Shown: positions 5,306-35,239, numbered from the stretch's first letter. The stretch is DNA of 35,962 bases from Patescibacteria group bacterium (GCA_038061815.1 JBBTYK010000009.1:4335-40296); one strand, 5' to 3'. Translations and numbers: made by a program. Notes: generated by a model from the sequence alone, not told the origin.

Positions 5306-6196
5306 ATGTTGCGCACGCTCGCTTTTTTTGACGTTTTTGACCACCCGCTCTCGTTGTATGAGTGGTACGCATGGTCGTTGCGCGATGCGTGGCGTTCATG
5401 GGGCGCATTTCGCGACGCAGTGGATGCCCTTGAATGCGAGGGCCGCATTCGCGTGATTGACGGAATGGCGGCGCTGGCGGGACGGGAGCGGTTGATTGAG
5501 GCGCGTCGCGCGCGACAGGCGGTGATTGCACGCAACATGAAACGCGCCATGGGCGTGGCGCGGCTGCTTCAATGGGTGCCGTTCGTGGAGTTCGCGGCGG
5601 TGTGCAACCGATTGTCTGTTGGGCATCCTCACGAGGAGAGCGATATTGACGTGGTGATTATGATTCGCGATGGGCGGCTGTGGTTCGGACGATTGCTCGT
5701 GACGGCGTTTCTTCATCTCGCCGGTTTGCGGCGCCACGGGAACCGCATCGCGCGGCGCGTGTGTTTGAGTTTTTATCTGACACCGCGCGCCGCGGATTTG
5801 CAAACGATTGCGCTTCGCGATTGCGATGATGTCTATCTGCGATATTGGGTCGCGCATATTATTCCGCTTTTTGCGCGCGCGGGAGCGTTGGAAGATTTTT
5901 GGCGCGCGAACGAATGGGCGCATCATGCGTTGCATCAGGCGCCGCGGCCGGCGCCGCTGTTGCGCCGCCGTGCGCCGATTGCGGTTTTTGTGGCGGAGTG
6001 GCTGTTGGGCGGATGGGTGGGCAACGTGTGCGAGCGCGCGAGCCGCGCAGTGCAGTTGCGGCGCATGGGCAACGCGGCGGCGGGTCGCGGCACGGCCGTG
6101 GTGATTTCAGATGCCATGCTGAAGTTTCATGAAAATGACCGGAGACAATGGTACGCTGAACAATGGGAAGAGCGCGTTCGCGCCGTGGGCGCATAG
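5306..6196 (+). CDS. Hypothetical protein with a nucleotidyltransferase-like signature
   Basis: 296-aa ORF starting at ATG 5306, after GAGAGG. VGHPHEESDIDVVIMI resembles the G-x..D-x-D strand of Pol-beta-type nucleotidyltransferases. The rest is unassigned. Its 3' end overlaps the next ORF by 68 nt. Confidence 0.65.
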   Translation: MLRTLAFFDVFDHPLSLYEWYAWSLRDAWRSWGAFRDAVDALECEGRIRVIDGMAALAGRERLIEARRARQAVIARNMKRAMGVARLLQWVPFVEFAAVCNRLSVGHPHEESDIDVVIMIRDGRLWFGRLLVTAFLHLAGLRRHGNRIARRVCLSFYLTPRAADLQTIALRDCDDVYLRYWVAHIIPLFARAGALEDFWRANEWAHHALHQAPRPAPLLRRRAPIAVFVAEWLLGGWVGNVCERASRAVQLRRMGNAAAGRGTAVVISDAMLKFHENDRRQWYAEQWEERVRAVGA

Positions 6197-7553: not shown

Positions 7554-7648
7554 CAGGTTTCGTTCCTCGTGAAACGATACTAATAGAGATACAAGGCCCA
7601 TCCGAGCCATGCAGAGGGACGGGCAGTTGTTCAGAAAGAGGAGAGCGC

Positions 7649-7712
7649 AAAAAGGCCTCGAGTGGGCTTCGCCCGTTGACAAGCACGGTCGTAGTTTCCT
7701 TGAGGCTTTTTT
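7649..7712 (+). terminator. Candidate terminator ~100 nt after the O-antigen-ligase gene
   Basis: An A tract (7649-7653), then gcctcgag (7655-7662) pairing with cttgaggc (7699-7706, one G-U), enclosing two small hairpins (gggc/gccc, gac/gtc), followed by TTTTTT (7707-7712). Confidence 0.5.
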
Positions 7713-7761
7713 GATCCCATACTTAAACGGACGTAACGGTCCACAGGGTATCAAAAAAGCC
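7704..7761. repeat. 15-bp inverted repeat (long hairpin) overlapping the preceding T tract
   Basis: ggcttttttgatccc (7704-7718) pairs with gggtatcaaaaaagcc (7746-7761) with one bulged base. The 27-nt loop contains ggac/gtcc. Confidence 0.6.
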
Positions 7762-7805
7762 AGAAGGAGGTTATAACCACTCACCGCTTAATTCATAACA
7801 TACCT

Positions 7806-7913
7806 ATGAGTGCGTTATCCTCCAATTATTCGGAGCGGTGTCCCCTCGGTGTGCGCGTGCGTTACCCCCTTACTGCACCCACCCATTTGGGAACTACCGA
7901 GAACGGCGACTGA
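7806..7913 (+). CDS. Candidate small ORF (35 aa), very uncertain
   Basis: Its ATG sits in the 9-mer ATACCTATG, which also carries the rpsB and groEL start codons. The peptide MSALSSNYSERCPLGVRVRYPLTAPTHLGTTENGD has no recognisable features. Confidence 0.15.
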   Translation: MSALSSNYSERCPLGVRVRYPLTAPTHLGTTENGD

Positions 7914-8064
7914 TAGTCACGAATTGCGCAAGAACCGGCTGCTGGCGAACGATGAGAAGCGCTGCGTGTCCGCAAGGCCGCATCTTCCGCTTGCGTACTA
8001 TCGAACCGTTGGCCGCTGGGACGCCTTCTTCCGAGCGTGTTAAATAAATGAGAGGAGAGGCCCT

Positions 8065-8235
8065 ATGGTGATATATGATACACGGCTCGGCACATCACCA
8101 TCTATGGGACGCTGGCTCACCGTGCATGGATTTAGAACGCGACGGATTGACCGGCAGAGTGACCAGATGATTCGGTTGTCGCTGTTGACACATCAGGAGG
8201 CGCATGGGCGTTACGAGGGATTGGGAGCGAGCTAG
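8065..8235 (+). CDS. Candidate small ORF (56 aa)
   Basis: GAGAGGAGAGG lies 5-7 nt upstream of ATG 8065 (context CCTATG). TAG at 8233-8235 is followed 19 nt later by a strong + strand terminator. It is below the ORF-track size cut-off. No family recognised. Confidence 0.35.
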   Translation: MVIYDTRLGTSPSMGRWLTVHGFRTRRIDRQSDQMIRLSLLTHQEAHGRYEGLGAS

Positions 8236-8253
8236 CAGGCAGTAAGGGGCGAT

Positions 8254-8285
8254 AACGCAGCGCAACCGCGCTGCGTTTGGTTTTT
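8254..8285 (+). terminator. Rho-independent terminator for a + strand transcript, abutting the convergent GT-C gene
   Basis: aacgcagcgc (8254-8263) pairs with gcgctgcgtt (8268-8277) around loop aacc, followed by TGGTTTTT. There is no T tract on the minus-strand side. Confidence 0.7.
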
Positions 8286-9687
8286 ATTTCTCGTACCGCT
8301 CAATCATTACCGACCCCATGCCGTCAAAGTTTTTTGTTTCCTCATAGTTCCACCCATGCTCCTCAAGCCACTCGCGGACGCCAAGCACGTACGGGTCGCT
8401 CTGTACAACGAGAAGTTCGCCGTTTTTTGGGACAAGCGCCGCGAGTTGTTCGCGGAGATAGTCTGGTTTCAGCTCCCAGCGCCAGTTGTGAGCGAGGAGC
8501 GTTTGAATTGACGTATCGGCGGTGCCGGGCGCAGGGATAACGAGCGCTGGTACGGCGTCGCGATAGTAATGGCGAAATGGTAGCGCATTGACAGTCCACG
8601 GTATGAGTGTAATGGCGTCTTGTTGCGTTTCCGCAAATGCCGCAGCGCGGTCCCAACTGAAACGGAAGGTGCGCGTGAGTTGTGCGGTGCTCACTATGGC
8701 TATAACTATCAAAAATGCGGCCATCGCGGCGCGCCAGCGCGCGGTTACGGCGCCAATGATAATGGCGATGACCGGAAGCAAAAACAAAAAGTACTTGATT
8801 TTCGGCGGGCCGACGAGCAGAGCCACTATAAATCCGAGACCGAGAACGGTTATAGGAAGGAGCAGTGCGGTTTGTTTGGCGCGGATGCCGCGATAGAGGG
8901 CATATGCAACAAAGCCGAGCATCGCAGTAAACACGAGCCAATAGACATACCATGGCACAGTGCCAGCCACCATCGTGAGCGAACTCAACATACTGAACGG
9001 CCAGCCGCGGCGCGCTTCCGCGTGCGCGAACCAGCTGTTTGACGCAATGGCTCCCACTTTCGGCAAAAATGACCATGCAAACCAGAGGCCCCAAACGGTG
9101 ATGAGTACAAAATGTGTACAGTGCCACCGTCGCCTATTTTGTTTTTCATGCGTCAGCGCGCCCCACAAATAATAGGCGAACGCAGGGATGATGGCATACA
9201 AATGGCTGGCGAGCAGCAAGGGCAAACTTACATAATACGCGCGATGGCGATGCGTGATGAGAAAAAAGCAGGTGAGCAGTGTCAAAAACACAAACAGCGC
9301 ATACATACGCGCTTCGGTGGAGAAATAGATAAGGGTGGGCGAGACCGCAACGAGCGCGGCGGCGATGAGGCCAGCAGCAGGATTGGCGAGTTTTTTTCCA
9401 ATCAATCCAACCAATGGAATGGCTGCAACGCCAAGCGCAAGAGCCGGCAACCGCACAATCCATTCGGCGTGCGGCAGCAGATGCGCCCATGGCCACATGA
9501 TGATGGTCCAGAGTGGCGGGTTGGTGTCTTGGCTCGCAAGGCGCAGCATCTCAAGAAACGGCAGTTTCGCGAGTTCCAGCGTGAACAGTTCGTCAAACCA
9601 AAAACTTCCGCGCGTGATGAGAAAAACGCCGCGCGGAATCGCGCCGAGGATGGTTATGATAAATAGCCAACGAGAGAAATGTGACAT
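8284..9687 (-). CDS. GT-C fold glycosyltransferase (ArnT/PMT-like, GT39/GT83-type)
   Basis: 467 aa with 11 or more TM helices. The first loop, FWFDELFTLELA, carries the acidic DE motif typical of GT-C enzymes. Soluble C-terminal ~100 aa. Confidence 0.85.
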   Translation of the reverse strand: MSHFSRWLFIITILGAIPRGVFLITRGSFWFDELFTLELAKLPFLEMLRLASQDTNPPLWTIIMWPWAHLLPHAEWIVRLPALALGVAAIPLVGLIGKKLANPAAGLIAAALVAVSPTLIYFSTEARMYALFVFLTLLTCFFLITHRHRAYYVSLPLLLASHLYAIIPAFAYYLWGALTHEKQNRRRWHCTHFVLITVWGLWFAWSFLPKVGAIASNSWFAHAEARRGWPFSMLSSLTMVAGTVPWYVYWLVFTAMLGFVAYALYRGIRAKQTALLLPITVLGLGFIVALLVGPPKIKYFLFLLPVIAIIIGAVTARWRAAMAAFLIVIAIVSTAQLTRTFRFSWDRAAAFAETQQDAITLIPWTVNALPFRHYYRDAVPALVIPAPGTADTSIQTLLAHNWRWELKPDYLREQLAALVPKNGELLVVQSDPYVLGVREWLEEHGWNYEETKNFDGMGSVMIERYEK

Positions 9688-9688
9688 A

Positions 9689-9736
9689 CTAATTAGATTG
9701 CTTCGTCGCTCGCTACGTTCGCTCCTCGCAATGACA
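9689..9736. repeat. Hairpin-module singlet (ATTGC box), minus orientation
   Basis: The reverse complement reads tgtcATTGCgagg...gacgaaGCAATctaattag. It fills the whole prfA / GT-C gene spacer. Confidence 0.8.
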
Positions 9737-10777
9737 TCAACTTCGTGCCGCTTTTCTCAACTCCGCAATCATGCCGTCCAAATCTCCGTCTAAAATACTC
9801 GCGATGTTGCTCCAGCTTTCTTTAATGCGGTGGTCGGTGATGCGGTCTTGGGGGAAATTATACGTGCGGATTTTTTCGCTGCGCTCGCCAGTGCCGATTT
9901 GTTTTCGGCGTTCGGACACTTCGGTGGAATGGCGCCTTTCTTCTTCAATGTCCATGAGCCGCGCGCGCAAAATGGCCATCGCCTGTTCGCGATTTTGGTT
10001 CTGGTAGCGTTCATTTTGGCACTGCACTACGATGCCGGACGGGATATGCGTGATGCGCACTGCGGTTTCCACTTTATTTACATTCTGGCCGCCCTTGCCG
10101 CCGGAGCGATAGGTGTCCAGTCTCAAATCTTTGGGGTCAATGCGGATTTCGGTTTCTTCAATCTTCGGCAATACTGCCACCGTTGCGGTTGAGGTGTGAA
10201 TGCGCCCTTGTTTCTCCGTTTCCGGCACGCGCTGAACGCGGTGCACGCCCTGTTCATACTTGAGCGCGCGGTACACATGGTCTCCGGTGATTTCCGCGGT
10301 AATTTCTTTATAGCCGCCGATGCCGATGCGATTTTCATCCAGCACGCGCACGCGCCAGCCTTTGCGTTCCGCAAAGCGTGAATACATGCGATACAAATCC
10401 GCGGCAAACAGCGCGGATTCATCGCCGCCGGTTCCAGCGCGGATTTCAACGATGACGTCTTTTGCGTCGCGCTGGTCCTTGGGCGAGAGCGCTTCCTCAA
10501 GTTGCGCTTCAATCTCTCCGCGCTCTTTGGCCAGTCCGGCCAATTCAAAATCCGCCAGCTCTTTCATTTCATGGTTTTCTTCCGTACCCGCAAGCAGTTC
10601 CGTCTCTTTTATTTTCGCCTGTACACCCTCAAGGCGCGTGATAAGGTCCGCGGTCTTTTTGAGGTCGCTGTATTCCTTTGACAGTTTCGCGAGTTTTTTT
10701 GGGTCGCTCGCGGCGTGTTGGAGCTCCGTTTCTATCTCTGCAAGGCGGGTTTTGATGGTTTGGTAGTTAGTGGGCAT
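9737..10777 (-). CDS. prfA: Peptide chain release factor 1
   Basis: [17 protein letters not shown] (PxT-type motif) and [24 protein letters not shown] (GGQ). ATG 10777 ([12 protein letters not shown]...) is preferred over the ORF-track TTG 10825. Confidence 0.93.
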
Positions 10778-10783
10778 AGACGT

Positions 10784-10817
10784 AGTATATAACAAAACAG
10801 ACTGAACGTCTGTTTTG
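10784..10817 (-). promoter_or_regulatory. Perfect 10-bp palindromic hairpin plus extended -10-like TGtTATATA between rpmE and prfA
   Basis: caaaacagac (10793-10802) pairs with gtctgttttg (10808-10817). On the minus strand this is followed by TGTTATATACT, ending about 6-8 nt before the prfA ATG. Confidence 0.35.
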
Positions 10818-10825
10818 TTGAGCAA

Positions 10826-11251: not shown

Positions 11252-12016
11252 ATGGTAACCATTCCAACACTGGAGGACATGCTCAAGGCTGGGGTGCATT
11301 TTGGGCACAAAGTCAGCAACTGGCATCCCAGCATGGAACCCTACATTTTTACGGAGCGAAGCGGGGTTCACATTATCAATCTTGAGCTCACGCGGAAGAA
11401 ACTGGAAGAAGCGCTTGAGGCCGCGCGCCGGATGGCGGCGGAAGGCAAAACGATTGTTTTCGTAGGCACGAAAAAACAGGCGCAGGACATCGTGCGGCAG
11501 TATGCGGAACAATGCGGCATGCCGTACGCCAACGAACGCTGGATCGGCGGGCTCATCACGAATTTCGGTGAAATCCACAAGCTCATCAAAAAGTATCTGA
11601 CGCTGAAAGAACAAAAAGTGAACGGCGAACTTGAAAAGTACACAAAAAAAGAACAACTGGAGTTTGAGCGCGAGATTGAACGTTTGAGTCACATGGTGGG
11701 CGGTATTGCTACGCTTGAACGGCTGCCGGACGCGCTGTTCGTGCTTGACATGCGCGGCGAGAAAACCGCGCTCACGGAAGCGACGCGAAAAAATGTGACG
11801 GTGTTCGGCCTCTGCGACACCAACGCCAATCCGGCACGCGCCACGTACGTGATTCCGGCCAACGATGATGCCGTGAATTCCATCACGATGGTTGCATCGC
11901 TCATGGCCGAGGCCATCGCCGAGGGCCGTGCGGAATGGAAAGAAAAGCAGGCGACGCTGGCGGTGAAAAAAGACGAAAAAGTGGGACGCGTATTCACCAA
12001 GGAACAATCGGAGTAG
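11252..12016 (+). CDS. rpsB: 30S ribosomal protein S2
   Basis: MVTIPTLEDMLKAGVHFGHKVSNWHP... ATG 11252 sits in the context ATACCTATG. The ORF-track start 10991 would overlap rpmE and both promoters. Confidence 0.95.
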   Translation: MVTIPTLEDMLKAGVHFGHKVSNWHPSMEPYIFTERSGVHIINLELTRKKLEEALEAARRMAAEGKTIVFVGTKKQAQDIVRQYAEQCGMPYANERWIGGLITNFGEIHKLIKKYLTLKEQKVNGELEKYTKKEQLEFEREIERLSHMVGGIATLERLPDALFVLDMRGEKTALTEATRKNVTVFGLCDTNANPARATYVIPANDDAVNSITMVASLMAEAIAEGRAEWKEKQATLAVKKDEKVGRVFTKEQSE

Positions 12017-12734: not shown

Positions 12735-12811
12735 GTCATTGCGAGGAGGGCCGATAGCCATCGGCCCGACGAAGCAATCTAATTAGATTGCTTCGCTCCG
12801 CTCGCAATGAC
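12735..12811. repeat. Hairpin-module doublet (ATTGC + ATTGC boxes) forming the gap 5' leader
   Basis: gtcATTGCgagg-gggccgat/atcggccc-gacgaaGCAATc TAATTA gATTGCttcgctccgctcGCAATgac. Its termini are GTCAT...ATGAC. Confidence 0.85.
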
Positions 12812-13879: not shown

Positions 13880-14158
13880 ATGTCTCGCTATCAAAGTTAC
13901 ATTCAAGTGCGTATTGAAGAGCGCACGAAGAAGCAAGCCCAAAAAGTATTGGAAGATTTGGGGCTTGATTTAACGACGGCGGTCAAAATGCTCTGCAAAC
14001 AAATTGTCCACACGGGCGCACTACCGCTTGAGTTGCGTGATGCCAATGGTTTTACGGCCCAAAAGGCGGCCGAGTTGCGTTTGGCGCAATATGAGGCCAT
14101 GGCGTCTGCCAAAACATTTAAATCAGCCAAACATCTGCTGGATGACGCGCTCGCTTAA
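13880..14158 (+). CDS. dinJ: Type II antitoxin, RelB/DinJ family
   Basis: IQVRIEERTKKQAQKVLEDLGLDLTTAVKMLCKQIV is a ribbon-helix-helix N-terminus resembling DinJ. It lies 3 nt upstream of the toxin gene. Confidence 0.85.
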   Translation: MSRYQSYIQVRIEERTKKQAQKVLEDLGLDLTTAVKMLCKQIVHTGALPLELRDANGFTAQKAAELRLAQYEAMASAKTFKSAKHLLDDALA

Positions 14159-14161
14159 CGT

Positions 14162-14440
14162 ATGCTTCAACTGAAGTACAGCGGCACGTTTAAGAAGGAT
14201 TTAAAGAAAGTCAGCGGATTGCCGCAGTTTAATCGCTCACACGTTGAGCGCATACTTGCGCGACTTGCTGGGGGAGAACGGTTGGAACCACGTTATCGGA
14301 ATCATGTGTTGAAGGGACGGTTTCAAGGATGCTTTGAGTGTCATTTACGGCCTGATTTACTGTTGATTTATCAAATAGACCGTCAAGCGCATTTGCTTCT
14401 TTTGCTTCGGATAGGTTCACATTCAGAATTGTTTGGGTAA
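14162..14440 (+). CDS. yafQ: Type II toxin, RelE/YafQ family mRNA interferase
   Basis: YSGTFKKDLKK...HVLKGRFQGCFECHLRPDLLLIYQI...RIGSHSELF parallels YafQ (H..L.G....H..PD.L.IY...R.G.H..LF). Confidence 0.85.
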   Translation: MLQLKYSGTFKKDLKKVSGLPQFNRSHVERILARLAGGERLEPRYRNHVLKGRFQGCFECHLRPDLLLIYQIDRQAHLLLLLRIGSHSELFG

Positions 14441-14579: not shown

Positions 14580-14666
14580 GTCATTCCGAGCGAGCGAAGC
14601 GAGCCGAGGAATCTAATCGTGAGATTTCTCCATTCACTCACGAGGCGTTCGTTCAGTCGAAATGAC
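14580..14666. repeat. Hairpin-module doublet (ATTCC + ATTTC boxes) in the groESL leader
   Basis: gtcATTCCgagcgagcgaagcgagccgagGGAATc taatcgtga gATTTCtcc...gtcGAAATgac. Confidence 0.8.
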
Positions 14667-16808: not shown

Positions 16809-17063
16809 ATGGCAGACGTGAAGTTCGCTGATAGTGGACATGTGGAGTCCTTGGAAAGATTCGGGTACTGCGCCTTTCGACTGACAAAGGAAGAGCGCGA
16901 ATGCTTTCATCCAGAGATCGGGCGGGTCATCCATCTTCTGCTCGACGACTCGACGCGCGGACGACGTGTCGCAGTCCGACTGGTCGCAGACCAGGAGGAG
17001 CAGGATGGTGGGTGTACATCCATCTACGCGGCCGCGGTTTCCGTCTTCAAGTACAACGAGTAG
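16809..17063 (+). CDS. Hypothetical protein (84 aa), orphan
   Basis: AAGGAGAG lies 6 nt before ATG 16809 and TAG is at 17061-17063. It has its own promoter and terminator. No family recognised. Confidence 0.55.
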   Translation: MADVKFADSGHVESLERFGYCAFRLTKEERECFHPEIGRVIHLLLDDSTRGRRVAVRLVADQEEQDGGCTSIYAAAVSVFKYNE

Positions 17064-17092
17064 TGGGGCGAACAACCGCCACAGTTCATCAT

Positions 17093-17127
17093 GCGCCATT
17101 CGAGATTTCTCGGATGGCGCGTTTTTT
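17093..17127 (+). terminator. Rho-independent terminator
   Basis: gcgccattcgag pairs with ctcggatggcgc (12 bp, one G-U) around loop attt, then GTTTTTT. Confidence 0.85.
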
Positions 17128-17137
17128 GTCCCGATAC

Positions 17138-17166
17138 ATGACAAATCACGCGAGTTCGTGTAGTGT
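17138..17166 (+). promoter_or_regulatory. Possible prfB promoter
   Basis: ATGACA, 17-nt spacer, TAGTGT. The predicted start falls at the left arm of the inverted repeat. Confidence 0.35.
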
Positions 17167-17169
17167 AGT

Positions 17170-17333
17170 AGGGGGCTGTCGCCGAATGCCATTTCAACTG
17201 CAATCGCATAATTTCGGCCATAATTGCCTCAAAACTTTTCGGCTTATCGCCTATAAGCCTCAAAATTTATTCGGCAATTCTGTCTCGAAATTCTGCGATT
17301 TCGTTATGAAAGCGCATTCGGCGACAGCCCCCT
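17170..17333. repeat. 164-nt rod-like inverted repeat (MITE-like element or structured prfB leader)
   Basis: The 20-nt arm agggggctgtcgccgaatgc (17170-17189) is the perfect complement of gcattcggcgacagccccct (17314-17333). The AT-richer interior is again an imperfect palindrome (aatcgcaTaatttcg.../...cgaaattCtgcgatt) with apical hairpin ggcttat/ataagcc. Confidence 0.8.
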
Positions 17334-17335
17334 GT

Positions 17336-18430
17336 ATGACTCCCAAAGAACTGACAACCGAACTTGAGGCGTTGCAAAAAGCGGTTCGCGAGAACCGCGC
17401 TTTGGTGCGTCCGGATGAAAAGGAGCGCGAGATAGCGGAACTGGAGCGTGAGATGCAGAAACCGGATTTTTGGAAACATAATGAGCAGGCGCAGAGCGTA
17501 TCACAGCGTCATGCGCATCTTCGCGCGGAACTGTCGCTCTGGGAAACGCTTGAGAAAGAAGTGGGCGACCTTTTGGCGCTCGCCATAGAAGCGGGCGATG
17601 ATGCCGCGCTTGCATCAGATATTGAAAAACAAACCGCGGAACTCCGCGCGCGTTTTGAGCGCATGTCCGTAACACTGCTTTTGAACGGCCCGCACGATGA
17701 GCGGAACGCCATTATCGCGATTCACGCTGGCGCGGGCGGCACGGAAGCGCAGGATTGGGTGGGTATGCTGTATCGCATGCTGATGCGATACGCCGAACGC
17801 CGCGGATGGAAAACCACGGTAGTGGATGAGCACGAGGGCGCGGAGGCGGGATATAAATCCGTGGTGTTTGAGGTGCAGGGCGCGTCTGCGTACGGGTATT
17901 TGAAATCCGAAAACGGTGTACATCGGCTGGTGCGCATTTCGCCGTTTGACGCGGAAAAAATGCGGCATACGTCGTTTGCGATGGTGGAGGTTTTGCCGGA
18001 ATTGGATGACGCGGCGGAGGTGAAGATTGACGAGAAGGATTTACAGGTTGATACGTTCCGTTCCGGCGGCAAAGGCGGGCAGAATGTAAACAAAGTGGAG
18101 ACCGCAGTGCGCATTACGCATGCGCCGAGCGGCATTGTTGTGTCATGCCAGACCCAGCGTTCGCAGTTGCAGAACCGTGAAAGCGCTATGAAAGTTTTGC
18201 GCGCGAAATTATACGCGGCGGAACAGGAGAAAAAGGCAAAAGAAAAAGCGGATGTGCGCGGCGAGTTTCAGAGCGCGGAATGGGGAAGCCAGATTCGTTC
18301 CTACGTGCTCCATCCGTACCAGATGGTAAAAGACCATCGCACCGAGCACGAAACGCAGGACACCGCGGGCGTGCTGGACGGGGATTTAGACGCATTTACC
18401 GAGGCGTATTTGCGGTGGAGGAGAGGATAA
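17336..18430 (+). CDS. prfB: Peptide chain release factor 2 (single uninterrupted frame)
   Basis: RISPFDAEKMRHTSF (SPF motif) and [24 protein letters not shown] (GGQ). ATG 17336 gives an N-terminus of normal length (PDFW at residues ~43-46). The ORF-track start 16901 is an upstream open-frame artefact. Confidence 0.93.
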   Translation: MTPKELTTELEALQKAVRENRALVRPDEKEREIAELEREMQKPDFWKHNEQAQSVSQRHAHLRAELSLWETLEKEVGDLLALAIEAGDDAALASDIEKQTAELRARFERMSVTLLLNGPHDERNAIIAIHAGAGGTEAQDWVGMLYRMLMRYAERRGWKTTVVDEHEGAEAGYKSVVFEVQGASAYGYLKSENGVHRLVRISPFDAEKMRHTSFAMVEVLPELDDAAEVKIDEKDLQVDTFRSGGKGGQNVNKVETAVRITHAPSGIVVSCQTQRSQLQNRESAMKVLRAKLYAAEQEKKAKEKADVRGEFQSAEWGSQIRSYVLHPYQMVKDHRTEHETQDTAGVLDGDLDAFTEAYLRWRRG

Positions 18431-19411: not shown

Positions 19412-20002
19412 ATGATTCTGGTTTCGCCTACAGAAATTCCACGCGCCATTTCACACCTGCAAAACGGCGGCGTGGTGGTGTACCCTACTGAAAGTTCCTA
19501 CGGCATCGGATGCATGGCGAGCAATGTGGCGGCGGTGGCGCGGGTGTTTGCGTTGAAACAGCGTCCGTTTGAGAAAATTTTGCCGTTGATTATTGGTTCG
19601 GTTGATGAAGCGAAGCGTTTGATTGTGTGGTCGCCGGTTGCGGAGAAGCTGGCAACGGAATACTGGCCCGGGCCGCTCACGATTGTGGCGCCGGCAACCG
19701 CGGTTGGGAGAGGGCTTGCGCCGGGTATCCTGGCGCCGGACGGCACGATTGCGCTGCGCATTTCGCCGCATCCGGTGGCGCGCGCGCTGGTTGATGCCGT
19801 CGGGCCGATTATTTCAACGAGCGCAAATTTGAGCGGCGCGCCGGCGTGTTTTGATGTGTCGTCCGTGAAGTCATGGATTGGCAACGCCGAGGATGTCATG
19901 GCGATTGACGCCGGCGCATTGCCGCGCGATTTGCCGTCAACCATCGTGCGTATCACCGATACGGGTTATGAAATACTCCGAAAAGGTCAGGCAGTTGTGT
20001 AA
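19412..20002 (+). CDS. tsaC: L-threonylcarbamoyladenylate synthase, YrdC-domain only (TsaC)
   Basis: VVYPTESSYGIGC, KQRPFEKILPLII, WPGPLTIV, ISTSANLSGAP. ATG 19412 (context CCTATG) is preferred, because TTG 19385 and ATG 19391 lie in the upstream terminator's T tract. Confidence 0.9.
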   Translation: MILVSPTEIPRAISHLQNGGVVVYPTESSYGIGCMASNVAAVARVFALKQRPFEKILPLIIGSVDEAKRLIVWSPVAEKLATEYWPGPLTIVAPATAVGRGLAPGILAPDGTIALRISPHPVARALVDAVGPIISTSANLSGAPACFDVSSVKSWIGNAEDVMAIDAGALPRDLPSTIVRITDTGYEILRKGQAVV

Positions 20003-20789
20003 GGATTATCGCGTGTATCCGGAAAAAACGCGCGGGCAGCATTTTTTGATTGACGACCAGTATGTGAAACGGATGGCGGACGCTTCAGGTATTACGAACA
20101 ATGATGTGGTGGTTGAAGTGGGGCCTGGATGGGGCATCTTGACCGAGGAATTGGCAAAACGCGCGGGGAAGGTGATTGCGATTGAGATTGAGGAGAAGAT
20201 GACATCGTATTTATACGATGTCATCCTGAGGGCCGCAGACCCGAAGGATCCCGCGTCGGTGCAGCGACCAGACGGGATTCTTCGCTTCGCTCAGAATGAC
20301 CGTTTAGAACTCCGGCACGGGGATGTGCGGCGGTTTTGGGACCAGATGCCCACGGAGCCGTATCACGTCATTGCCAACATTCCGTACCACATTACATCAC
20401 AGATTATTCGCGGTTTTTTGGAAAAAACGCCGCGAGCGCCGGAGCAAATGGTGCTCATGCTGCAAAACGAAGTGGCGGACAGAATTATCGCCAAGCCGGG
20501 CGACATGACCATGCTTTCGCTTTCGGTGCAGTGGTACGGCAAACCCAAAAAAATATTTCGCGTGCCGCGCGGCGCGTTTTGGCCGTCGCCGGAAGTGGAT
20601 TCCGCGGTGATTCAGATTACGGATATCAAGCGGCCGCCACCTGAAGAAACGAAGGCGGTACTCGCGCTTGCCAAGCGCGCGTTCGCGCAAAAACGCAAAC
20701 AGTTATCTTCTTCACTTGGTATTGCCTCCACTGCACGTCCGCAGGAATTGAGCATTGCGGATTGGCGCCGCCTTGCCGGCCGTGCTTGA
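19968..20789 (+). CDS. rsmA: 16S rRNA (adenine1518/1519-N6)-dimethyltransferase RsmA/KsgA, carrying a 27-codon repeat-element insertion
   Basis: GQHFLIDDQYV, VVEVGPGWGILTEEL (motif I), ANIPYHITSQII. ATG 19968 overlaps the tsaC 3' end by 35 nt. Confidence 0.9.
   Translation: MKYSEKVRQLCKDYRVYPEKTRGQHFLIDDQYVKRMADASGITNNDVVVEVGPGWGILTEELAKRAGKVIAIEIEEKMTSYLYDVILRAADPKDPASVQRPDGILRFAQNDRLELRHGDVRRFWDQMPTEPYHVIANIPYHITSQIIRGFLEKTPRAPEQMVLMLQNEVADRIIAKPGDMTMLSLSVQWYGKPKKIFRVPRGAFWPSPEVDSAVIQITDIKRPPPEETKAVLALAKRAFAQKRKQLSSSLGIASTARPQELSIADWRRLAGRA
20220..20300. repeat. Hairpin-module doublet (ATCCT + ATTCT boxes) inserted in frame in rsmA
   Basis: gtcATCCTgag-ggg..ccc-gaAGGATc ... gggATTCTtcgcttcgctcAGAATgac. 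81 nt, exactly 27 codons, translating as VILRAADPKDPASVQRPDGILRFAQND. Confidence 0.85.
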
Positions 20790-25484: not shown

Positions 25485-27536
25485 ATGACGCCTCGTTTTG
25501 TTATTGCGATTCCCTCATATAATCGTCCTGCTGCGTTGGGGACGTTGCTTGCGCAATTGGATGCGCAGACTGACGCGCCTCCGTTTGAGGCGTACGTTCT
25601 GAACGACGGAAACCATGCCGAGAGCGCGCGGTTTCTTGAGATGTTTGCGCCGCGCCGGTACCGGCTGCGGGCGCGTTCAACGGCGGCGCCGAGCGGCCTG
25701 CCGAGCGCGCGAAATCGCATTCTTGATTGGATTGCGGAAACGCCGATGGCCGGGCCGACGTTTGTGTGCTTTTTAGACGATGATTGCGAGGTGAACACAT
25801 TTTTTGTTCAAGAGGTTGCGCGCGCGGCGCAGCGGTTTGATGCGTTCACGTTTCGGATTGAAACGATTGGACAGAGCGGCATCGTGAACACCCGCAATAA
25901 CCGCGCGCTTTCGTGGCTGCTCCGGCCGTTGCGCGGGCGGGTATGGCTGTCGCTTGGCATCATCCGCGGCGGGTATTATGAGTGGACGCCGCGGCCGGTG
26001 CGCGTTGACCAGCTCCCGGGCGGCTGTTTAATATATCGGTTTGATAAGTATCCGCGATTGCGTTTTGACGAGGCGTTGAACGACGGCAACGCGATTCTTG
26101 AAGACACCGAATTCTCCTGCGCGCTCCGCGCGGCCGGTGCGCGGTTGTGGTATATCGGCTCTTACGGCATCGTCCATCGGCCCGGCAGCGTGGGCGGGGT
26201 GCGCGTGGCCGTCAGCGAAGAAAAATACGAGTGCTATTGGCGGCATAAATGTTTTTTGGTGCGCAAATGGCGCGGCCGGTGGGCGCTTTTTACCGCTTTT
26301 CCGTTTTCTTTTCTGGAGAGCGTGGCGCTTTCATTATTGCAACGGCGATGGCTCGCAGGCGTCTGTATGCGCGCGTGGTTCAGCGAGCAAACGCCGCGCG
26401 GCGCGCACCGCGGTTTGCGTATTGCAGCGCCGCAGTCGGGCATCAATCCCGCTTCAACGCTGGGAGGAGAAGTGTATGACGCGTCTGTTTTGAAAGAGAT
26501 TGCCCGACAAGCGGATGTTGAGATTATTTTGCCGCGGAATAAACCGTTCAGCGACAATGGCGCGCGGTGGCGTGTGAGCGTCATGCCGGCCATCACGAAC
26601 GCCATCGGCTATTACGTAGGCATCTATCGGGCGCTGTGCGCAAACTACCGCGCGCGCCCCTTTTCAATCGTGCGCGTCCATTCGCCGTACCTGACGGCGC
26701 TCCCCGTTTTGTTTTTTGCGCGCCGGCACAAAACCGTGAAAACGTTCGCCAGTTATTTGCACGCGGAAGAGGATACGGTGTCGCGCGCGATTTCTCGTCT
26801 GGTCGTCAAACGATGGGATGCCATCGGCGCAATCAGTGAGGCGTCAAAAAATGAGTTGGTTTCTTTATACGGCGCCGATGCGGCGAAGATTGTGGTGACG
26901 TATCCGGGCGTGGACGAAGCGTATTTTGCGCCGATGTCGCACGAGCGTTTGCAGGAGTTTAAAACGGCGCACGGGCTTGCGGGTAGATTTGTGATACTCC
27001 ACCTCGGCAGTTTGATTGCGCGGAAAAATGTCTCGTTTCTCATTGACGTTATCGCGGCATTGCCTCCGCGCGCGGTGCTGGTGATTGCCGGCCAGGGGCC
27101 GGAGCGGAGCCGGTTAGAACGGCAGGCGGCGCAGGTTGGATGCGCCGACCGCGTGTGTTTTGCGGGAAGAGTATCGGAGGAGGAGAAGATGCTGTGGATG
27201 CATGCCACCGATGTTTTCGTGTTGGCATCGCACAAAGAAGGATTTGGCATGGGCGTGGCGCAAGCCGCCGCGTGCGGGACGCCTGGCATCGTATCGGACG
27301 TATATTCGTTGCCCGAGGTGGTGGCGGACGGTTACACAGGCGCGGTGCGGCCGCTGAATGTTGACGCGTGGCGCGCGACGTTGCAGACGTGGATGGACGA
27401 CCCAACGCCGGTGCAGCGTCTGGGAGCGCAGGCGCGTGTGCGGGCGCGCGAACGTTTCAGTTGGAAAGAGGCGGCGGCCGCGCAGTTGCGGCATATGCGC
27501 GCCATGGCGCATGAGGACAATAACGCACGCACATGA
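25485..27536 (+). CDS. Bifunctional glycosyltransferase: GT2 domain fused to GT4 domain (683 aa)
   Basis: N-terminal domain: FVIAIPSYNRPAALGTLLAQL and FLDDDCEV (DxD), GT-A/GT2. From about nt 26415: (L)RIAAPQ...HKEGFGMGVAQAAACGTPGIVSD (E-x7-E-type GT4 C-terminal domain). Confidence 0.85.
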   Translation: MTPRFVIAIPSYNRPAALGTLLAQLDAQTDAPPFEAYVLNDGNHAESARFLEMFAPRRYRLRARSTAAPSGLPSARNRILDWIAETPMAGPTFVCFLDDDCEVNTFFVQEVARAAQRFDAFTFRIETIGQSGIVNTRNNRALSWLLRPLRGRVWLSLGIIRGGYYEWTPRPVRVDQLPGGCLIYRFDKYPRLRFDEALNDGNAILEDTEFSCALRAAGARLWYIGSYGIVHRPGSVGGVRVAVSEEKYECYWRHKCFLVRKWRGRWALFTAFPFSFLESVALSLLQRRWLAGVCMRAWFSEQTPRGAHRGLRIAAPQSGINPASTLGGEVYDASVLKEIARQADVEIILPRNKPFSDNGARWRVSVMPAITNAIGYYVGIYRALCANYRARPFSIVRVHSPYLTALPVLFFARRHKTVKTFASYLHAEEDTVSRAISRLVVKRWDAIGAISEASKNELVSLYGADAAKIVVTYPGVDEAYFAPMSHERLQEFKTAHGLAGRFVILHLGSLIARKNVSFLIDVIAALPPRAVLVIAGQGPERSRLERQAAQVGCADRVCFAGRVSEEEKMLWMHATDVFVLASHKEGFGMGVAQAAACGTPGIVSDVYSLPEVVADGYTGAVRPLNVDAWRATLQTWMDDPTPVQRLGAQARVRARERFSWKEAAAAQLRHMRAMAHEDNNART

Positions 27537-30500
27537 ACATACTGTTTCTCAATGAATACGCGCATCCATTTGTGGCCGGCGGCGCTGAAGAATCAACCAT
27601 GCAGCTGGCGCGGGTTCTCGTAGCGCGAGGACACGCGGTAAGCATCCTGACTCCCAATTACGGCGCCGCGCCGGTGGAGATGATTGACGGAGTGCGTATT
27701 GAGCGCTACGCGTTTCCCAAACGCGGAAACAAAGAGCGAAAAACCATCGGCGGATGGTGGCACACCTCTCTTTTTTGGTGGTGTTACAGTTCGTTGCGTA
27801 CCGTGATGGCCGTGCGCCGTCTCGCGCCGGACCTCATTCATATTCATGGAAAATTCAGCATTCCTGCCGGCGTGATTGCCGGACGCATGTTTGGCGTGCC
27901 AACCTTGTTCACGGCGCGGGATTATCGCGCGCTGTGCAATTATGGACGATGTATCAGTGAGCATCCGACCAGTCGGCGATGCACATTTAGGGAGTATTGG
28001 CGGTGGGAGTTTCCTGCGTATGTACGTGCGTATACGGACGGCGGCGCGAAGGCGTGGTTCGTGAATGCGCTGTACGCGCTGCGCGGCCGCGCGTGGGCGC
28101 GCGTGCTGTACGCCGCGCTCAAACGAGTGGATGTCGTGGTGTGCGTGAGCCGCGCCGTGGCGCGGATTTACGAGGCGAACGGCATTTGGCAGACCCAGCC
28201 GATTTATAATATCCAGCAGCCGCTTTCTGAACCGGCGCGTCCGATGAGCGATGCGGAGGCGCCGGAGGCGCTCTACATCGGCAAATTGTCGCCCGGCAAG
28301 GGCGCTGGGTTGCTTCCGGAGGTTATTGGACAAACGCTTAAAGGGCATCCAACGCTCGTGTGGACGATTTATACGAATGGCGGCGTGCTTGAACGAACGG
28401 TGCGCGCGGCATTGGATGCGCATCTGTACGCCGGACGCGTGCGGATTTTACCCTATGTGCCGCACGAAGAACTCATGGCGCGCATCGCAGGCGCTGCAGT
28501 GGTGTGCATTCCATCAGTGTGGCAGGAGCCGCTCACGCGGCTTGCGCTGGAGGCGCTTCAATCCGGCACGCCGGTGGTGATTACGGACCGCGGCGGTTCG
28601 CGGGAGATAGTGGAGGATATGGTAACGGGGCGATTGGTGCCGGCTGATGCGCTTTCCATTGCAGAGGCGGTGCTTGACGTGGTGAATAATGGAGCACACT
28701 ATCGGGAACGCATCCGGGAAAAGCGGGAATCACTTACGAACACATTTTGTGTTCAACCCATTGCCGACCACGAACGGCTCTATGAACGATTGGCGCGCCG
28801 CGTTCTTTTTCAAACGCTCGGCGTCATTTTGCCGCCGGGCGGTTCGTTGACAGTGCTTGACCGTCATGGGCAGAAATCGCGGTATCTGACCTATCTGACG
28901 CGGTATGCGCAGGCGTTTGACCGTGTGTTGGTATTTACGTTTGCAGATGAAACAGAAGCAAGACTCCCCGCCAACGTGAAGCTGGTACCTCCATGCGCCC
29001 GTTCAAAACGGCTCTACACGTTTTTGCTGCCGTTCGCGCATCGGCGAGCGCTGCGCGCTTGCGGCGTACTCCGCGTCATGCAAATGGACGGATGCATTCC
29101 GGCGGTGCTTGCTCATTGGTTGTATGGCGTGCCGTTTGCCGTGACGTTCGGCTATAAATATGCCGAGTTCGCGCTGTTAAAGAACCGGCAGGCGTTTTCT
29201 AAAATCATGCGATGGATTGAGGCGCTGGGAGTGCGGACGGCAACCACGATTATTTTCACCACTGAAGAGCTGCGCGCGTATCTGCTCAAGCGATTCGGGC
29301 CGCGCATTGAGCAAAAATTGCTGTTGATTCCCAACGGCGTTGATACGCGGCAATTTTCGGAAGGCCGCGACCGCGACCCGCACACGCTGTTGTTCGTCGG
29401 GCGTTTGGAAGAACAGAAAAATTTGTTTGCGCTGCTTGAGGCCGTCGCTCAATTGCCGGAACGCGCAGCGTTGCGTTTGGTGTGGATAGGACGCGGCAAT
29501 TTGGAAGGCGCGTTGCGTCAGCGCGCGCGTGAGTTGGGCGTGTCTCTTGAAATTATTCCGCGCGTTGATAACGCGGCGTTGCCGCCGTACTATCAAAAGG
29601 CCGGCGTGTTCACGCTCGTGTCCCTGATTGAGGGCATGCCGAAAGCGCTCATTGAGGCGATGAGCGCCGGTTGTCCGTGCGTGGTGTCGGATTGCGACGG
29701 CAATCGAGTGCTTGTTGAGGATGGCGTGACAGGCTATGTCACGGGAACGGACGCGCCGTCCATCGCGACTGGTCTGGCGCGTGCGCTGGGGGATGCGGAG
29801 TTCCGCAGTCGTGTGGGCAGCGCGGCGCGGGCAAAGGTCGTAGCGCAGTATGATTTACGTCAGTTGCTTGAAAAGGAAATAAAGCAGCTTCTGGTTGCAA
29901 AAAAAGCGGTTATCGGGTACGATATGACGTCCGTATCTCACATGGAACACCCCATTAAAAAAGCGCTCATAACAGGTATCGGCGGGCAGGACGGCTTTTA
30001 TATGGCCGAGTTGCTGTTGGAAAAAGGTTATGAAGTGCACGGCATCATTAGACACGCGACCAGCACCGGCACGGACCGCATGGAACAGTTGCGCGCCGAG
30101 TTGCCGCACGGGTCAAGCAGCTTATTGCATTTGCATTACGCCGATTTGTCCGATTCCGGCAGTATCGGTATGCTGTTGGAACGCATCAAACCGGACGAGC
30201 TGTATAATTTTGCGGCGCACAGTCAGGTTCGCGTGAGTTTTGACATCCCCGAGTATACCTGCGATATTACCGGACTGGGGGCGGTGCGGGTTTTTGAGGC
30301 CGTCCGCCAGTCAGGTCTCCCGACGCGGGTGTATCAAGCGGGGTCGTCGGAGATGTTTGGCAAGGCGCGCGTCACGCCGCAAACGGAAGAAACGCCGTTT
30401 TATCCGCGTTCGCCCTACGCGTATGCCAAGGCCCTCGCGCATTTTGCGGCGGTGAATTATCGCGAAAGCTACGGCATGTTCATTTGCAACGGCATTTTGT

Positions 30501-30994
30501 ACAACCACGAATCGCCGCGGCGCGGGGAAATGTTCGTCACGAGAAAAATCACCAAAACGCTGGCGCGCATTGCGGCCGGCGAAGACCTGGCGTTGTCTCT
30601 GGGGAACTTGGATGCGGAACGCGATTGGGGATACGCGCCGGATTATGTGGAGGCCGTTTGGCGCATGCTGCAGCAGGATGCGCCGGACGATTATCTGCTG
30701 GCCACCGGCGTGGCGCACCGCATACGGGATTTTGTTGAAGCGGCCGGCCGCGCGTTGCATTTTGATATACGGTGGGAGGGACACGGCGCCGAAGAGCGCG
30801 GCAGTGATGCCGGCACCGGCCGCGTGCTCGTGCGCGTTGACCCGAAGTTTTTCCGTCCGGTTGAACCGGAAAAGCTCACGGGCGACTCCCGTAAGGCGCG
30901 CGCGAAGCTGGGCTGGGAGCCGCGCACCTCGTTTGATGATTTGGTGAGAATGATGGTGGAAGCCGATGTGGCGAGATTGAAAAATTCTTTATGA
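27533..30994 (+). CDS. Tri-domain fusion: GT4 + GT4 + GDP-mannose 4,6-dehydratase (1153 aa)
   Basis: GT4-1 ([20 protein letters not shown]...[23 protein letters not shown]). GT4-2 from about nt 28800 (...[23 protein letters not shown]). Gmd domain from about nt 29942 ([38 protein letters not shown]). No stop codon between domains. ATGA overlaps at both ends (27533-27536, 30991-30994). Confidence 0.85.
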
Positions 30995-33024
30995 AAAAAG
31001 CGCTCATCACGGGTATCACCGGCCAAGACGGGTCCTATCTCGCCGAATTTTTGCTGGCAAAAGGATACGAGGTGCACGGTTTGATGCGCCGTTCTTCCAG
31101 TTTCAACACCGAACGCATTGAGCACATTTATCAGGACCCGCACGAGGCGAATCGCCGGCTGTTTTTGCATTACGGCGATTTGTCGGACGCGAGCAACTTG
31201 AGTCGTCTCATAGAAAAAGTTGCGCCGGACGAGATTTACAATCTCGGAGCGCAGAGCCACGTGCGCGTGAGTTTTGACATGCCGGAATACACCGGCGACA
31301 TCACCGGCCTCGGAACGCTGCGCCTCTTGGACACCATCCGCCTGTCCGGACTCAAAACGAAATTCTATCAGGCGAGTTCGTCTGAAATGTACGGCAAGGT
31401 GCGCGAGACGCCGCAATGCGAGACCACGCCGTTTTACCCGCGCTCGCCGTACGCTTGCGCAAAAGTGTTCGCTCATTTCACCGCCATCAACTATCGCGAG
31501 AGTTATGGCATGTTTATTTGCAACGGCATTTTGTTTAATCACGAGTCGCCGCGCCGCGGTGAGACGTTCGTGACCCGTAAAATTACGCGCGGACTGGCGC
31601 GCATCAAAGCCGGACTTGAGTCAACGCTGTTTTTGGGCAATCTGGACGCAAAACGCGACTGGGGCTACGCCAAAGAATATGTGGAGGCGATGTGGCTCAT
31701 GCTGCAGCAGGAACAGCCGGACGATTACGTCATCGCAACCGGAGAAAATCACACCATCCGCGAATTTGTGGAACGCGCGGCCGGCATGATAGGATACGAT
31801 ATTGTGTGGGTGGGAACGGGAACCGAGGAGCGCGGCGTTGACCGCGCCACGGGCAACACGCTCATCAGGATTGAGCCGCGCTATTATCGGCCGGCGGAAG
31901 TGGATGCGTTGCAGGGCGATGCCGGCAAAGCAAAACGCGTACTTGGTTTTGAACCGAAAACATCGTTTGAGGAGCTGACGCGTCTAATGATGGCGCACGA
32001 CCTTAAAAAGTACGGTTTGTCATTGTCGCCGCTTCCGGTTTCCTCTCAATTAGGCGCCGCGCAATCTGACGCCGCTTCCGTTCAGGGCGGCATGGCCAAA
32101 AACGCCAAAATCTACGTGGCGGGCCATCGCGGATTGGTGGGCTCCGCCATCGTGCGGAATTTGGAAAGCAGGGGCTACACCAACATCGTAAAACGCACGC
32201 ACGACGAGCTCAATCTCCGCGATGAACGCGCCGTCGCAGCGTTTTTTGAGCAGGAAAAACCGGAGTACGTTTTTCTCGCGGCGGCGAAAGTGGGCGGCAT
32301 CGTGGCGAACCAAGAGGCGAAGGCGGAAATGTTCTATGACAACACGGCGATTGAATTGAACGTCATTCATCACGCGTGGAAGAACGGTGTGAAGAAGCTG
32401 GTGTTCTTGGGGTCAAGCTGCATTTATCCGAAACTGGCGCCCCAGCCGATTAAGGAAGAGTATCTGATGACCGGCCATTTGGAAACCACGAACGACGCCT
32501 ACGCGGTCGCAAAAATCGCCGGCATTCAGATGTGCCGCGCGTATCACGAACAGTACGGCTTCAAATTCGTCGCCGTTATGCCATGCAATTTGTTCGGGCC
32601 GGGCGACAATTTTGATTTGAAGACCTCGCACGTCCTTCCCGGACTGTTGCGCAAAGCGGTGGAGGCGAGAGAGCGCGGCGACCGGCAGATGGTTATGTGG
32701 GGAACCGGCACGCCGCGGCGCGAGTTTTTGTATGTTGATGATATGGCTGACGCGTGCGTGTTTTTGATGAACAGCGCGGCGGAAAACGAGATTTTTAACG
32801 TGGGAATGGGGGAGGATATCGCGATTAAAGACCTCGTGCGGTTGATTTGCGAGGTGGTGGGGTATCGTGGCGAAATTGTCAATGATACTGCGAAACCGGA
32901 CGGCACGCCGCGCAAGCTACTTGACGTGAGTCGCCTTCATGCGCTTGGATGGAAGCATCGGGTGCCGCTCCGCGAGGGCATTGAGAAGACGTACTCGTGG
33001 TTTCTGGCGAATCGGCCGTCGTAA
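30991..33024 (+). CDS. gmd-fcl: Fusion: GDP-mannose 4,6-dehydratase + GDP-L-fucose synthase (677 aa)
   Basis: Gmd: [39 protein letters not shown] ~25-aa S/P/A linker follows. The Fcl domain starts at the internal Met at nt 32092: [30 protein letters not shown]. Confidence 0.9.
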
Positions 33025-33032
33025 CATTTTAT

Positions 33033-35159: not shown

Positions 35160-35239
35160 GTCATTGCGAGCTCCGCCCCTGGCGGAGCGAAGCAATCTAA
35201 TTAGATTGCTTCGTCGTGCTCCGCACTCCTCGCAATGAC
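35160..35239. repeat. Hairpin-module doublet (ATTGC + ATTGC boxes) between the aminotransferase-SDR gene and the next GT
   Basis: gtcATTGCgag-ctccgcc/ggcggag-cgaaGCAATc TAATTA gATTGCttcgtc-gtgc/gcac-tcctcGCAATgac. Confidence 0.85.

Follow-up and report, generated by a model that had tools for sequence, protein, structure and literature searches.

An in-frame palindromic doublet of the YGTC-tagged REP type in the rsmA gene of a Patescibacteria group bacterium

We analysed a 35,962-nt stretch of DNA from a groundwater Patescibacteria group bacterium (GCA_038061815.1 JBBTYK010000009.1:4335-40296; hereafter the window), in which rsmA (ksgA), the gene for the 16S rRNA adenine dimethyltransferase, carries a doublet of inverted palindromic units inside its coding sequence (Table 1). 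The product matched Pfam RrnaAD with E=1e-42 and KsgA structures in the PDB with E-values down to 3e-34. It has the features that define the RsmA/KsgA family (the RrnaAD domain, the S-adenosylmethionine (SAM) motif I, the NxPY motif and the C-terminal domain), keeps all residues that are invariant in an alignment of 120 homologues, and has its best matches in Candidatus Magasanikbacteria, of the Candidate Phyla Radiation (CPR, Patescibacteria). The doublet occupies positions 20220-20300, that is 81 nt or 27 codons reading VILRAADPKDPASVQRPDGILRFAQND, and starts 252 nt (84 codons) past the rsmA ATG, on a codon boundary. It lies between VVEVGPGWGILT and AIEIEEKMTSYLYD upstream and RLELRHGDVRRF and ANIPYHITS downstream, exactly as a first-pass annotation, made from the DNA alone, had read it.

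The doublet is composed of two inverted hairpin units with their heads outward and their tails inward, each resembling a repetitive extragenic palindromic (REP) unit. The left unit runs through the head GTC (with T at -1), the arm ATCCT, GA, the weak apical hairpin GGGCCGCAGACCC, GA, the arm AGGAT and the tail CCC. The right unit, which reads GTCATTCTGAGCGAAGCGAAGAATCCC on the minus strand, corresponds to a basal unit with a GCGAAGC mini-hairpin, and the identical 25-nt unit is present in genomes of many phyla. In the basal unit, ATTCT-GA-GCGAAGC-GA-AGAAT, the stem reaches about nine positions when the G.A pairs are included; in many units an apical hairpin of greater length takes the place of a 4-5-nt loop. 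One plan is common to all units of the window. GTC is followed by a 5-nt arm starting with AT and by the dinucleotide GA; a mini-hairpin rich in G and C, either GCGAAGC or an extended stem-loop, stands in the middle; a second GA and the arm complementary to the first then lead into a C-rich tail (CCC, CAC, CTA or CTC). As read from these sequences, then, the unit is a YGTC tag and a predicted stem base of 5 bp (ATYSY/RSRAT), above which tandem G.A mismatches lead to a GC-rich mini-hairpin at the apex, with a C-rich tail after it.

Six loci within the 36 kb follow this plan, the rsmA copy and five more, and at five of the six the units form inverted dimers. The head GTCATYCTGAG, with at most one mismatch, occurs 5 times in the window where 0.59 occurrences are expected. 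T stands at -1 of GTCAT in all five left units of the window; across 95 metagenomic doublets this position holds T in 75-83% and C in 11-19%. The stem arms were complementary in 132 of 136 family copies from many phyla, with five pair types, a strong covariation in support of the unit hairpin. The predicted folds of the window doublets are four-way junctions or pairs of hairpins, and their z-scores reach -9.8; for the rsmA doublet the predicted fold has -36.6 kcal/mol and z=-3.2. Readings of the element as an intein, an intron or a CRISPR were rejected on size, on the lack of motifs and on the lack of a tandem arrangement.

In the protein, the insert adds 27 residues between helix αB and strand β3. 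The segment from K77 to the HGD motif has 40 aa in the window RsmA vs 19 or 21 aa in 89 of the 120 CPR homologues, among which it ranges from 15 to 52 aa. The first-pass proposal that excision of the element would leave a contiguous Rossmann-fold sequence needs amending: deletion of the 27 codons would shorten the segment to 13 aa, below every one of the 120 homologues. Because of this, the ends of the element (VIL..., ...QND) must stand in for native linker residues, and the insert is no clean add-on to the RsmA linker. The AlphaFold2 (AF2) model, built with 120 sequences and with the insert in place, has a confident core (predicted local distance difference test, pLDDT, 92.4; predicted template modelling score, pTM, 0.90) and aligns with B. 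subtilis KsgA (6ift) at a TM score of 0.80. In this model αB spans residues 76-90, thus running through VILRAA, the first six insert codons; the pLDDT falls to 60 at residues 91-100 and 56 at 101-110, a loose loop, and β3 follows at 113-117. The general topology of class I methyltransferases places the αB-β3 turn at the sheet edge opposite the SAM site.

A polymorphic insertion site in which the frame is kept

We compared the protein alignment and the DNA of nine rsmA orthologues. P0002, P0003 and P0005 (80-83% identity) carry doublets of 93, 87 and 90 nt at the identical codon and with identical termini, and differ from the window in their internal hairpins and spacers. P0008 carries a single unit, right-hand and of the GCAATGAC subfamily; the solitary unit of P0006 has decayed; and P0007 retains the right terminus only, CTCCAGAATGAC, a 12-nt remnant. 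P0004 (78%) and P0009 have a 7-residue linker without the element. With short αB-β3 linkers in P0004, P0007, P0009 and the 89 homologues mentioned above, the 27 residues are lineage-specific.

The four orthologous versions (81, 93, 87 and 90 nt) are all free of stops and all multiples of three. Indels in the side hairpins and the spacer (-6, +7 and +11 nt) change the internal frame, yet the total remains a multiple of three, and the shared arm GGGATTCTTCG is consequently read in the phase GGG-ATT-CTT in the window vs G-GAT-TCT-TCG in locus L003. Among 97 doublets sampled at large, lengths modulo three were uniform (26/34/37). The rsmA copy has one open frame per strand, the open one being the frame used by the gene; the intergenic GC-type doublets of the window, of 77 and 80 nt, have stops in 6/6 and 5/6 frames, respectively. 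The internal indels thus always cancel out in frame, as selection for an intact open reading frame would lead one to expect and as removal of the element from the RNA would not. We infer that the palindrome is conserved as DNA while the peptide is not, and that the insert is translated. It would also be neutral for RsmA function. AADPKDPASVQRPDGILR is an example of a predicted tryptic peptide that spans the insert junctions.

RsmA was not the only protein in which in-frame copies were found. An RsmA of 376 aa encoded by a different CPR organism in the same aquifer (P0102, locus L256, 40% identical) has three in-frame doublets in three loops, one of them the same αB-β3 linker, read in another frame. 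At large, 16 of 109 testable metagenomic doublets were read through by an open reading frame (ORF) that extends 60 codons or more to either side, and the Pfam-confirmed proteins split by a doublet were MiaA, CysRS, GuaA, an ATP-citrate-lyase-like protein, TatD and a GT2 glycosyltransferase. A read-through ORF of 1233 aa at locus L237 resembles a class I aminoacyl-tRNA synthetase and is a candidate for the same situation. Within the window itself, the second in-frame copy adds 36 aa just ahead of the Wzy_C domain of an O-antigen-ligase-like membrane protein. The orthologues of this protein vary here much as those of RsmA do, with no element, single units or other subfamilies at the loop: P0242 and P0247 are empty, units of the VILS type occupy it in P0243-P0245, and those of the VIARS type in P0246 and P0248. 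P0245 has an additional doublet in a different loop.

We also noted that the 'empty' allele of P0004 (locus L001), with the codons GGC TTG TGT CAT GAA ACA, contains TGTCATGAAACAC, which fits 10 of 12 positions of the head-to-tail junction GTCAT/GAATGAC; it may be an excision footprint, or a chance match.

The repeat family and its association with GIY-YIG genes

By anatomy, and set against the described features, the units fit the superfamily of the CGTC/TGTC-tagged REPs, described by Di Nocera, De Gregorio & Rocco 2013 as families CGTC-1 to -4 (PMC3733652). These repeats have a terminal unpaired tag, CGTC and in many repeats TGTC, with CCTC variants too; a stem 8-9 bp long that opens with an A-T and a T-A pair; a loop of 4-5 nt, except for the variable loops of Bradyrhizobium CGTC-1; and a 3-nt unpaired 3' tail with the consensus CCA. 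They occur mostly as inverted dimers, among which heterodimers are frequent (PMC3733652). The units studied here have the YGTC tag, the A-T/T-A stem start, the short C-rich tail, inverted dimers with variable spacers, common heterodimers, and in-frame intragenic dimers in housekeeping genes (27 aa in rsmA, 36 aa in wzy). They differ in the tandem G.A mismatches of their stems, in an often present extra GC-rich apical hairpin, in the absence of Y before GTC in the right-hand units of the intragenic copies, and in their host, since Patescibacteria/CPR are outside the five phyla listed in 2013 (PMC3733652). Intragenic in-frame dimers of the published families encode 20-30 aa, and the supplement gives peptides such as VIPAKAGISL...IPAFAGMT, VVPAKAGTSL...IPASAGMT (GlyRS) and SFLRKQES...DSRFRGND, and also annotates a dimer in the R. 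conorii dimethyladenosine transferase, at residues 1-12 (PMC3733652); the V-I start and the ...GMT or ...ND ends recur in the peptides seen here. The phenomenon and the repeat superfamily are thus already published, and the CPR is a new host phylum for them.

The first-pass annotation had named the Rickettsia palindromic elements (RPEs) as the only known parallel. The comparison is closer than it supposed: Neisseria dRS3 and R. conorii RPE-6 and RPE-4 are members of the CGTC-tagged REPs (PMC3733652), and because RPE-4 and RPE-6 belong to this superfamily with in-frame dimers, the analogy comes close to homology. The RPEs are not, on the other hand, the sole precedent. With the RPE-1 type (Ogata et al. 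2000; see the review PMC10969869) the rsmA doublet has in common that it is selfish palindromic DNA, in frame in essential genes and at surface positions compatible with the fold; RPE-1 is however about 100-150 bp with a conserved peptide, whereas here the peptide is unconserved and the element is a dimer of ~27-40-nt units. The REPINs, mobilised by the RAYT tyrosine transposases (Bertels & Rainey 2011, PMC3116915), likewise consist of two inverted REP hairpins as one non-autonomous unit and form a population of variants within a genome. Their tag is GTAG and their partner enzyme a Y1 (HUH) transposase. The units studied here are tagged YGTC, the Pfam-scanned proteins of the window included no Y1_Tnp, and a GIY-YIG nuclease was the only associated gene found. 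In the full-text literature, literal GTCATTGCGAG and GTCATTCTGAG matched unrelated primers only, and the searchable library held no paper that joins REPs and CPR.

A scan with the basal unit, using one genome per species, gave at least 120 genome loci. Among the matches listed were Alphaproteobacteria, Acidobacteriota, Nitrospirota, Bacteroidota, Chloroflexota, Planctomycetota and Bacillota, and also Cyanobacteria, Omnitrophota, Rickettsiales and Patescibacteria (Gracilibacteria, Saccharimonadales). The Bradyrhizobium copies are likewise outward-headed dimers, with CGTC tags and CCA tails.

In Neisseria, NTS is an extended form of dRS3 with CGTC as its head (Chenal et al. 2025, PMC11893778). 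NTS and the related SRM ('Ssn-related motifs') hairpins flank genes for Ssn, a 94-aa single-domain GIY-YIG protein (cd10448); Ssn proteins cleave the hairpin as single-stranded DNA (ssDNA) only and modulate transformation, the catalytic residues of SsnA are Y6, Y17 and E64, and the search pattern for SRM is HGTCWYN(0-2)YYVSBRHN(0-5)WNVSBRGN(0-2)RNCYNB (PMC11893778). Neither this pattern nor a GIY..YIG peptide regex, which was too strict, gave a match in the window or in the 120 loci. GIY-YIG ORFs elsewhere were obtained by tblastn with a GIY-YIG consensus, followed by Pfam confirmation. Small single-domain PF01541 genes adjoin the units in 3 of the 120 genome loci listed (Gracilibacteria L030, Planctomycetota L040 and Omnitrophota L097) and in 14 of the 120 metagenome loci listed, which had been chosen only by the doublet pattern. 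In these 17 loci the proteins have 90-109 aa and most genes are flanked on both sides by inverted units; the alignment has invariant Y4, Y15 and E62, the same spacing as in SsnA. A GIY-YIG profile search matched 7999 of 8000 candidates, indicating a very large family; no match labelled Magasanikbacteria was among those listed, which carry no lineage information. A separate observation concerns locus L241, a low-GC CPR-like contig with a unit-bracketed GIY-YIG gene (5951-6217) that has an internal stop and is likely a pseudogene, and with an in-frame doublet in GuaA (~11376-11421).

The likeness to the NTS/SRM-Ssn system thus extends to the HGTC-headed hairpin, the conserved C after the palindrome, and identical units that bracket single-domain GIY-YIG genes elsewhere, one Gracilibacteria genome included, with the same Y/Y/E spacing. 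Intragenic copies are not discussed in that work ('intragenic' has 0 occurrences in PMC11893778). By analogy, it is plausible that the repeats spread through recognition of the ssDNA hairpin by an Ssn-like GIY-YIG nuclease.

Origin of the insert and alternative explanations

We consider it probable that a selfish YGTC-tagged REP dimer sits in a permissive linker of rsmA, with the frame kept, translated as a loose loop, and with its palindrome maintained or renewed. The doublet would have entered the αB-β3 linker in an ancestor of this Magasanikbacteria clade, and would have survived there for being in frame, stop-free in that frame and in a permissive surface linker. It would then be transcribed and translated together with rsmA, leaving the catalytic motifs untouched, and its first six codons (VILRAA) may have been co-opted to extend αB, the remainder forming a loose loop. 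The palindrome would later have been maintained or renewed at the DNA level, with turnover of the internal hairpins and the spacer, so that the peptide would be a by-product, not a domain under selection. The core of the first-pass annotation, that a mobile palindromic doublet sits in frame in a surface linker and is tolerated by an RsmA that looks functional, is supported by these data.

Several results weigh against this scenario. Neither strand of the window matches the SRM pattern, because the window units have longer stems that contain mismatches, and no GIY-YIG (ssn-like) gene or other transposase was seen within the window or along the ~3 kb that a sister contig adds past its end. At -1 of the right unit, the two intragenic copies (rsmA and wzy) show G or A in place of Y. 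At none of the five window doublets do the flanks share a direct repeat that could be a target-site duplication; for the same reason a reading as miniature inverted-repeat transposable elements was rejected, although inverted termini are present. Finally, no clean empty site is visible among the orthologues, where the 7-residue linker of the 'empty' alleles may itself be a remnant, and a neighbour-joining tree with bootstraps left undecided both whether P0004 lost or never gained the element and the order of gain and loss in the window clade.

It is improbable that the insert is a selected functional module, for instance an RsmA extension peculiar to the CPR and in contact with their unusual 30S subunit or with a partner. 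Its persistence in several related lineages and in strains up to 73 single-nucleotide polymorphisms apart would suit such a role, as would the continuation of αB through the first six insert residues in the AF2 model and the repeated hits on RsmA loops in CPR. The peptide, however, is unconserved in orthologues that are 80-83% identical, except at its ends, which the termini of the DNA element impose; identical nucleotides fall in differing frames; the loop has a pLDDT of 56-60; close relatives (P0004, P0007, P0009) do without the insert; and the same element occurs in unrelated proteins and in intergenic DNA. Keeping every version stop-free and a multiple of three, as seen in the four orthologous inserts despite their internal indels and in every intragenic copy elsewhere, would in turn be needless if the element were removed or skipped (by splicing, by processing and religation, or by ribosomal bypass) to give a protein without the 27 residues, the option that had been raised at first; intergenic copies, by contrast, have stops and lengths of 77 and 80 nt. 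The stable RNA structure, and the fact that a clean removal would preserve the frame, speak for this option. No repeat copy gave an Rfam match, intron or other, whether the cut-off was the gathering threshold or E<=1, 81 nt is far under the size of self-splicing introns, and the linker after removal would be shorter than in all 120 homologues, all of which makes removal very improbable. Repeats are a classic source of misassembly in metagenomes, and a chimera in which a repeat was mis-joined into rsmA, or a decaying gene, had been a concern. The identical 81 nt in the same context were recovered from three separately assembled samples (L133, L134 and L135, with 73, 14 and 27 mismatches to the window; 99.0-99.6% identity), orthologous inserts are present in NCBI, ENA, JGI and Logan assemblies, and the ORF is intact with all invariant residues in place; we give this explanation scarcely any credence. 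A seeming divergence of another contig (L131) from the window at 35686 was a scaffold gap of Ns.

A more serious alternative, which we regard as possible although doubtful, replaces one ancient insertion by repeated re-targeting or gene conversion, the loop being a preferred landing or conversion site. As a component of such a history, and with the same reserve, the orthologue versions could be independent insertions or templated replacements, perhaps after cleavage of the hairpin by a nuclease. Different subfamilies indeed occupy one rsmA site, where the window clade has the AGAATGAC type and P0008 the GCAATGAC type, the wzy loop has VILS- or VIARS-type units in different orthologues, the distant P0102 has a doublet in the same linker in another frame, and both arms have changed jointly (CTGAG:CTCAG in the window and L003 vs CTGGAG:CTCCAG in L004 and L006). 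Against it, the four doublets of the window clade share their exact codon position and both termini, for which one ancestral event is simplest; the order of events is not resolved by the tree, and no enzyme was identified in this genome. The more specific proposal that CPR YGTC doublets are re-targeted or gene-converted at the same protein loops through ssDNA cutting by an Ssn-like enzyme and templated repair from other copies is rather unlikely. If re-targeting did take place, surface loops of essential proteins such as RsmA, Wzy and aminoacyl-tRNA synthetases would be swappable, fast-evolving cassettes, and the doublets could also mark self DNA against transformation, like the Neisseria NTS.

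Returning to the tolerated selfish dimer, translated REP-type palindromes in essential genes have been documented mainly in Rickettsia, Opitutus and some Alphaproteobacteria. Their extension to the ultra-small CPR genomes concerns hosts in which intergenic space is scarce and protein loops appear to act as landing sites; besides the RsmA with three doublets, seven other housekeeping proteins have one apiece. Such inserts inflate and diversify CPR protein sequences, can mislead alignments and gene calling, and seed spurious 'hypothetical protein' families through peptides like VILSEAKDP, CHSERSEES, ILRFAQND and SLRMT. The rsmA case also joins two literatures, that on CGTC-REPs and RPEs and that on the NTS-Ssn nuclease system, and its filled, empty and remnant alleles are natural material for studying the movement of these repeats.

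Other features of the window

The remaining copies of the repeat are listed in Table 1 together with the parts of the rsmA doublet and the three doublets of the P0102 rsmA.

Table 1. Coordinates of the rsmA doublet and of further copies (positions in the window unless locus L256 is given).
Feature	Position	Strand	Remarks
rsmA/ksgA (16S rRNA adenine dimethyltransferase)	19968-20789	+	intact, 273 aa; carries the insert
Left REP unit GTCATCCTGAGGGCCGCAGACCCGAAGGATCCC	20220-20252	+	sequence, hairpin scan
Spacer, 21 nt	20253-20273	+	length and sequence vary among orthologues (codon-level comparison)
Right REP unit GGGATTCTTCGCTTCGCTCAGAATGAC, inverted	20274-20300	-	minus-strand reading GTCATTCTGAGCGAAGCGAAGAATCCC; hairpin scan
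In-frame doublet, rsmA-copy subfamily, 36 codons VILRPRQIGAEGSRTNDGNPPGFFNSYAGLRSFRMT	6801-6908	+	inside Wzy_C/O-antigen-ligase-like gene 6129-7553
Solo unit, GTCATTGCGAG subfamily, half of TAATTAG spacer	9696-9735	-	between 8284-9687 and 9737-10825 (both minus strand)
Intergenic doublet, GTCATTGCGAG subfamily, central CTAATTAG spacer	12735-12811	.	between tsf and gap; fold -47.6 kcal/mol, z=-8.0
Intergenic doublet, ATTCC/ATTTC type	14580-14666	.	between relB/yafQ pair and groES
Intergenic doublet, GTCATTGCGAG subfamily	35160-35239	.	fold -49.2 kcal/mol, z=-9.8
rsmA doublets of locus L256	3275-3360, 3414-3515, 3810-3918		

The relB/yafQ-type toxin-antitoxin pair (13880-14440; Pfam families per the gene table of the sister contig L133) lies directly upstream of a REP doublet and groES-groEL. 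A 164-nt element at 17170-17333, with 27-nt terminal inverted arms that are 93% complementary (AGGGGGCTGTCGCCGAATGC...), is unrelated to the YGTC units; it stands just upstream of a release-factor gene whose start is probably at 17337, and the listed ORF 16901-18430 reads through it. No tRNA was found in the window. About 730 nt between the Wzy-like and PMT_2-like genes (7553-8284) have neither a convincing ORF nor an Rfam match, and could be a degraded gene or an undescribed RNA. A 37-aa excess in the NusA N-domain proved to be an acidic linker with no repeat.

At 145-1059, an ORF without a Pfam match has Cys-rich repeats with motifs like C.(Y/F)T(A/T)CP.GC(T/Q)W, which correspond to DNA repeats of 75-81 nt spaced 114-216 nt apart. 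The region 27533-35156 contains very large fused sugar-metabolism genes: two GT4 modules with a GDP-mannose dehydratase (1153 aa), a double epimerase/dehydratase (677 aa) and a DegT with an epimerase (719 aa). An internal duplication spaced 1034 nt relates 30191-30490 to 31225-31524, with 73% identity.

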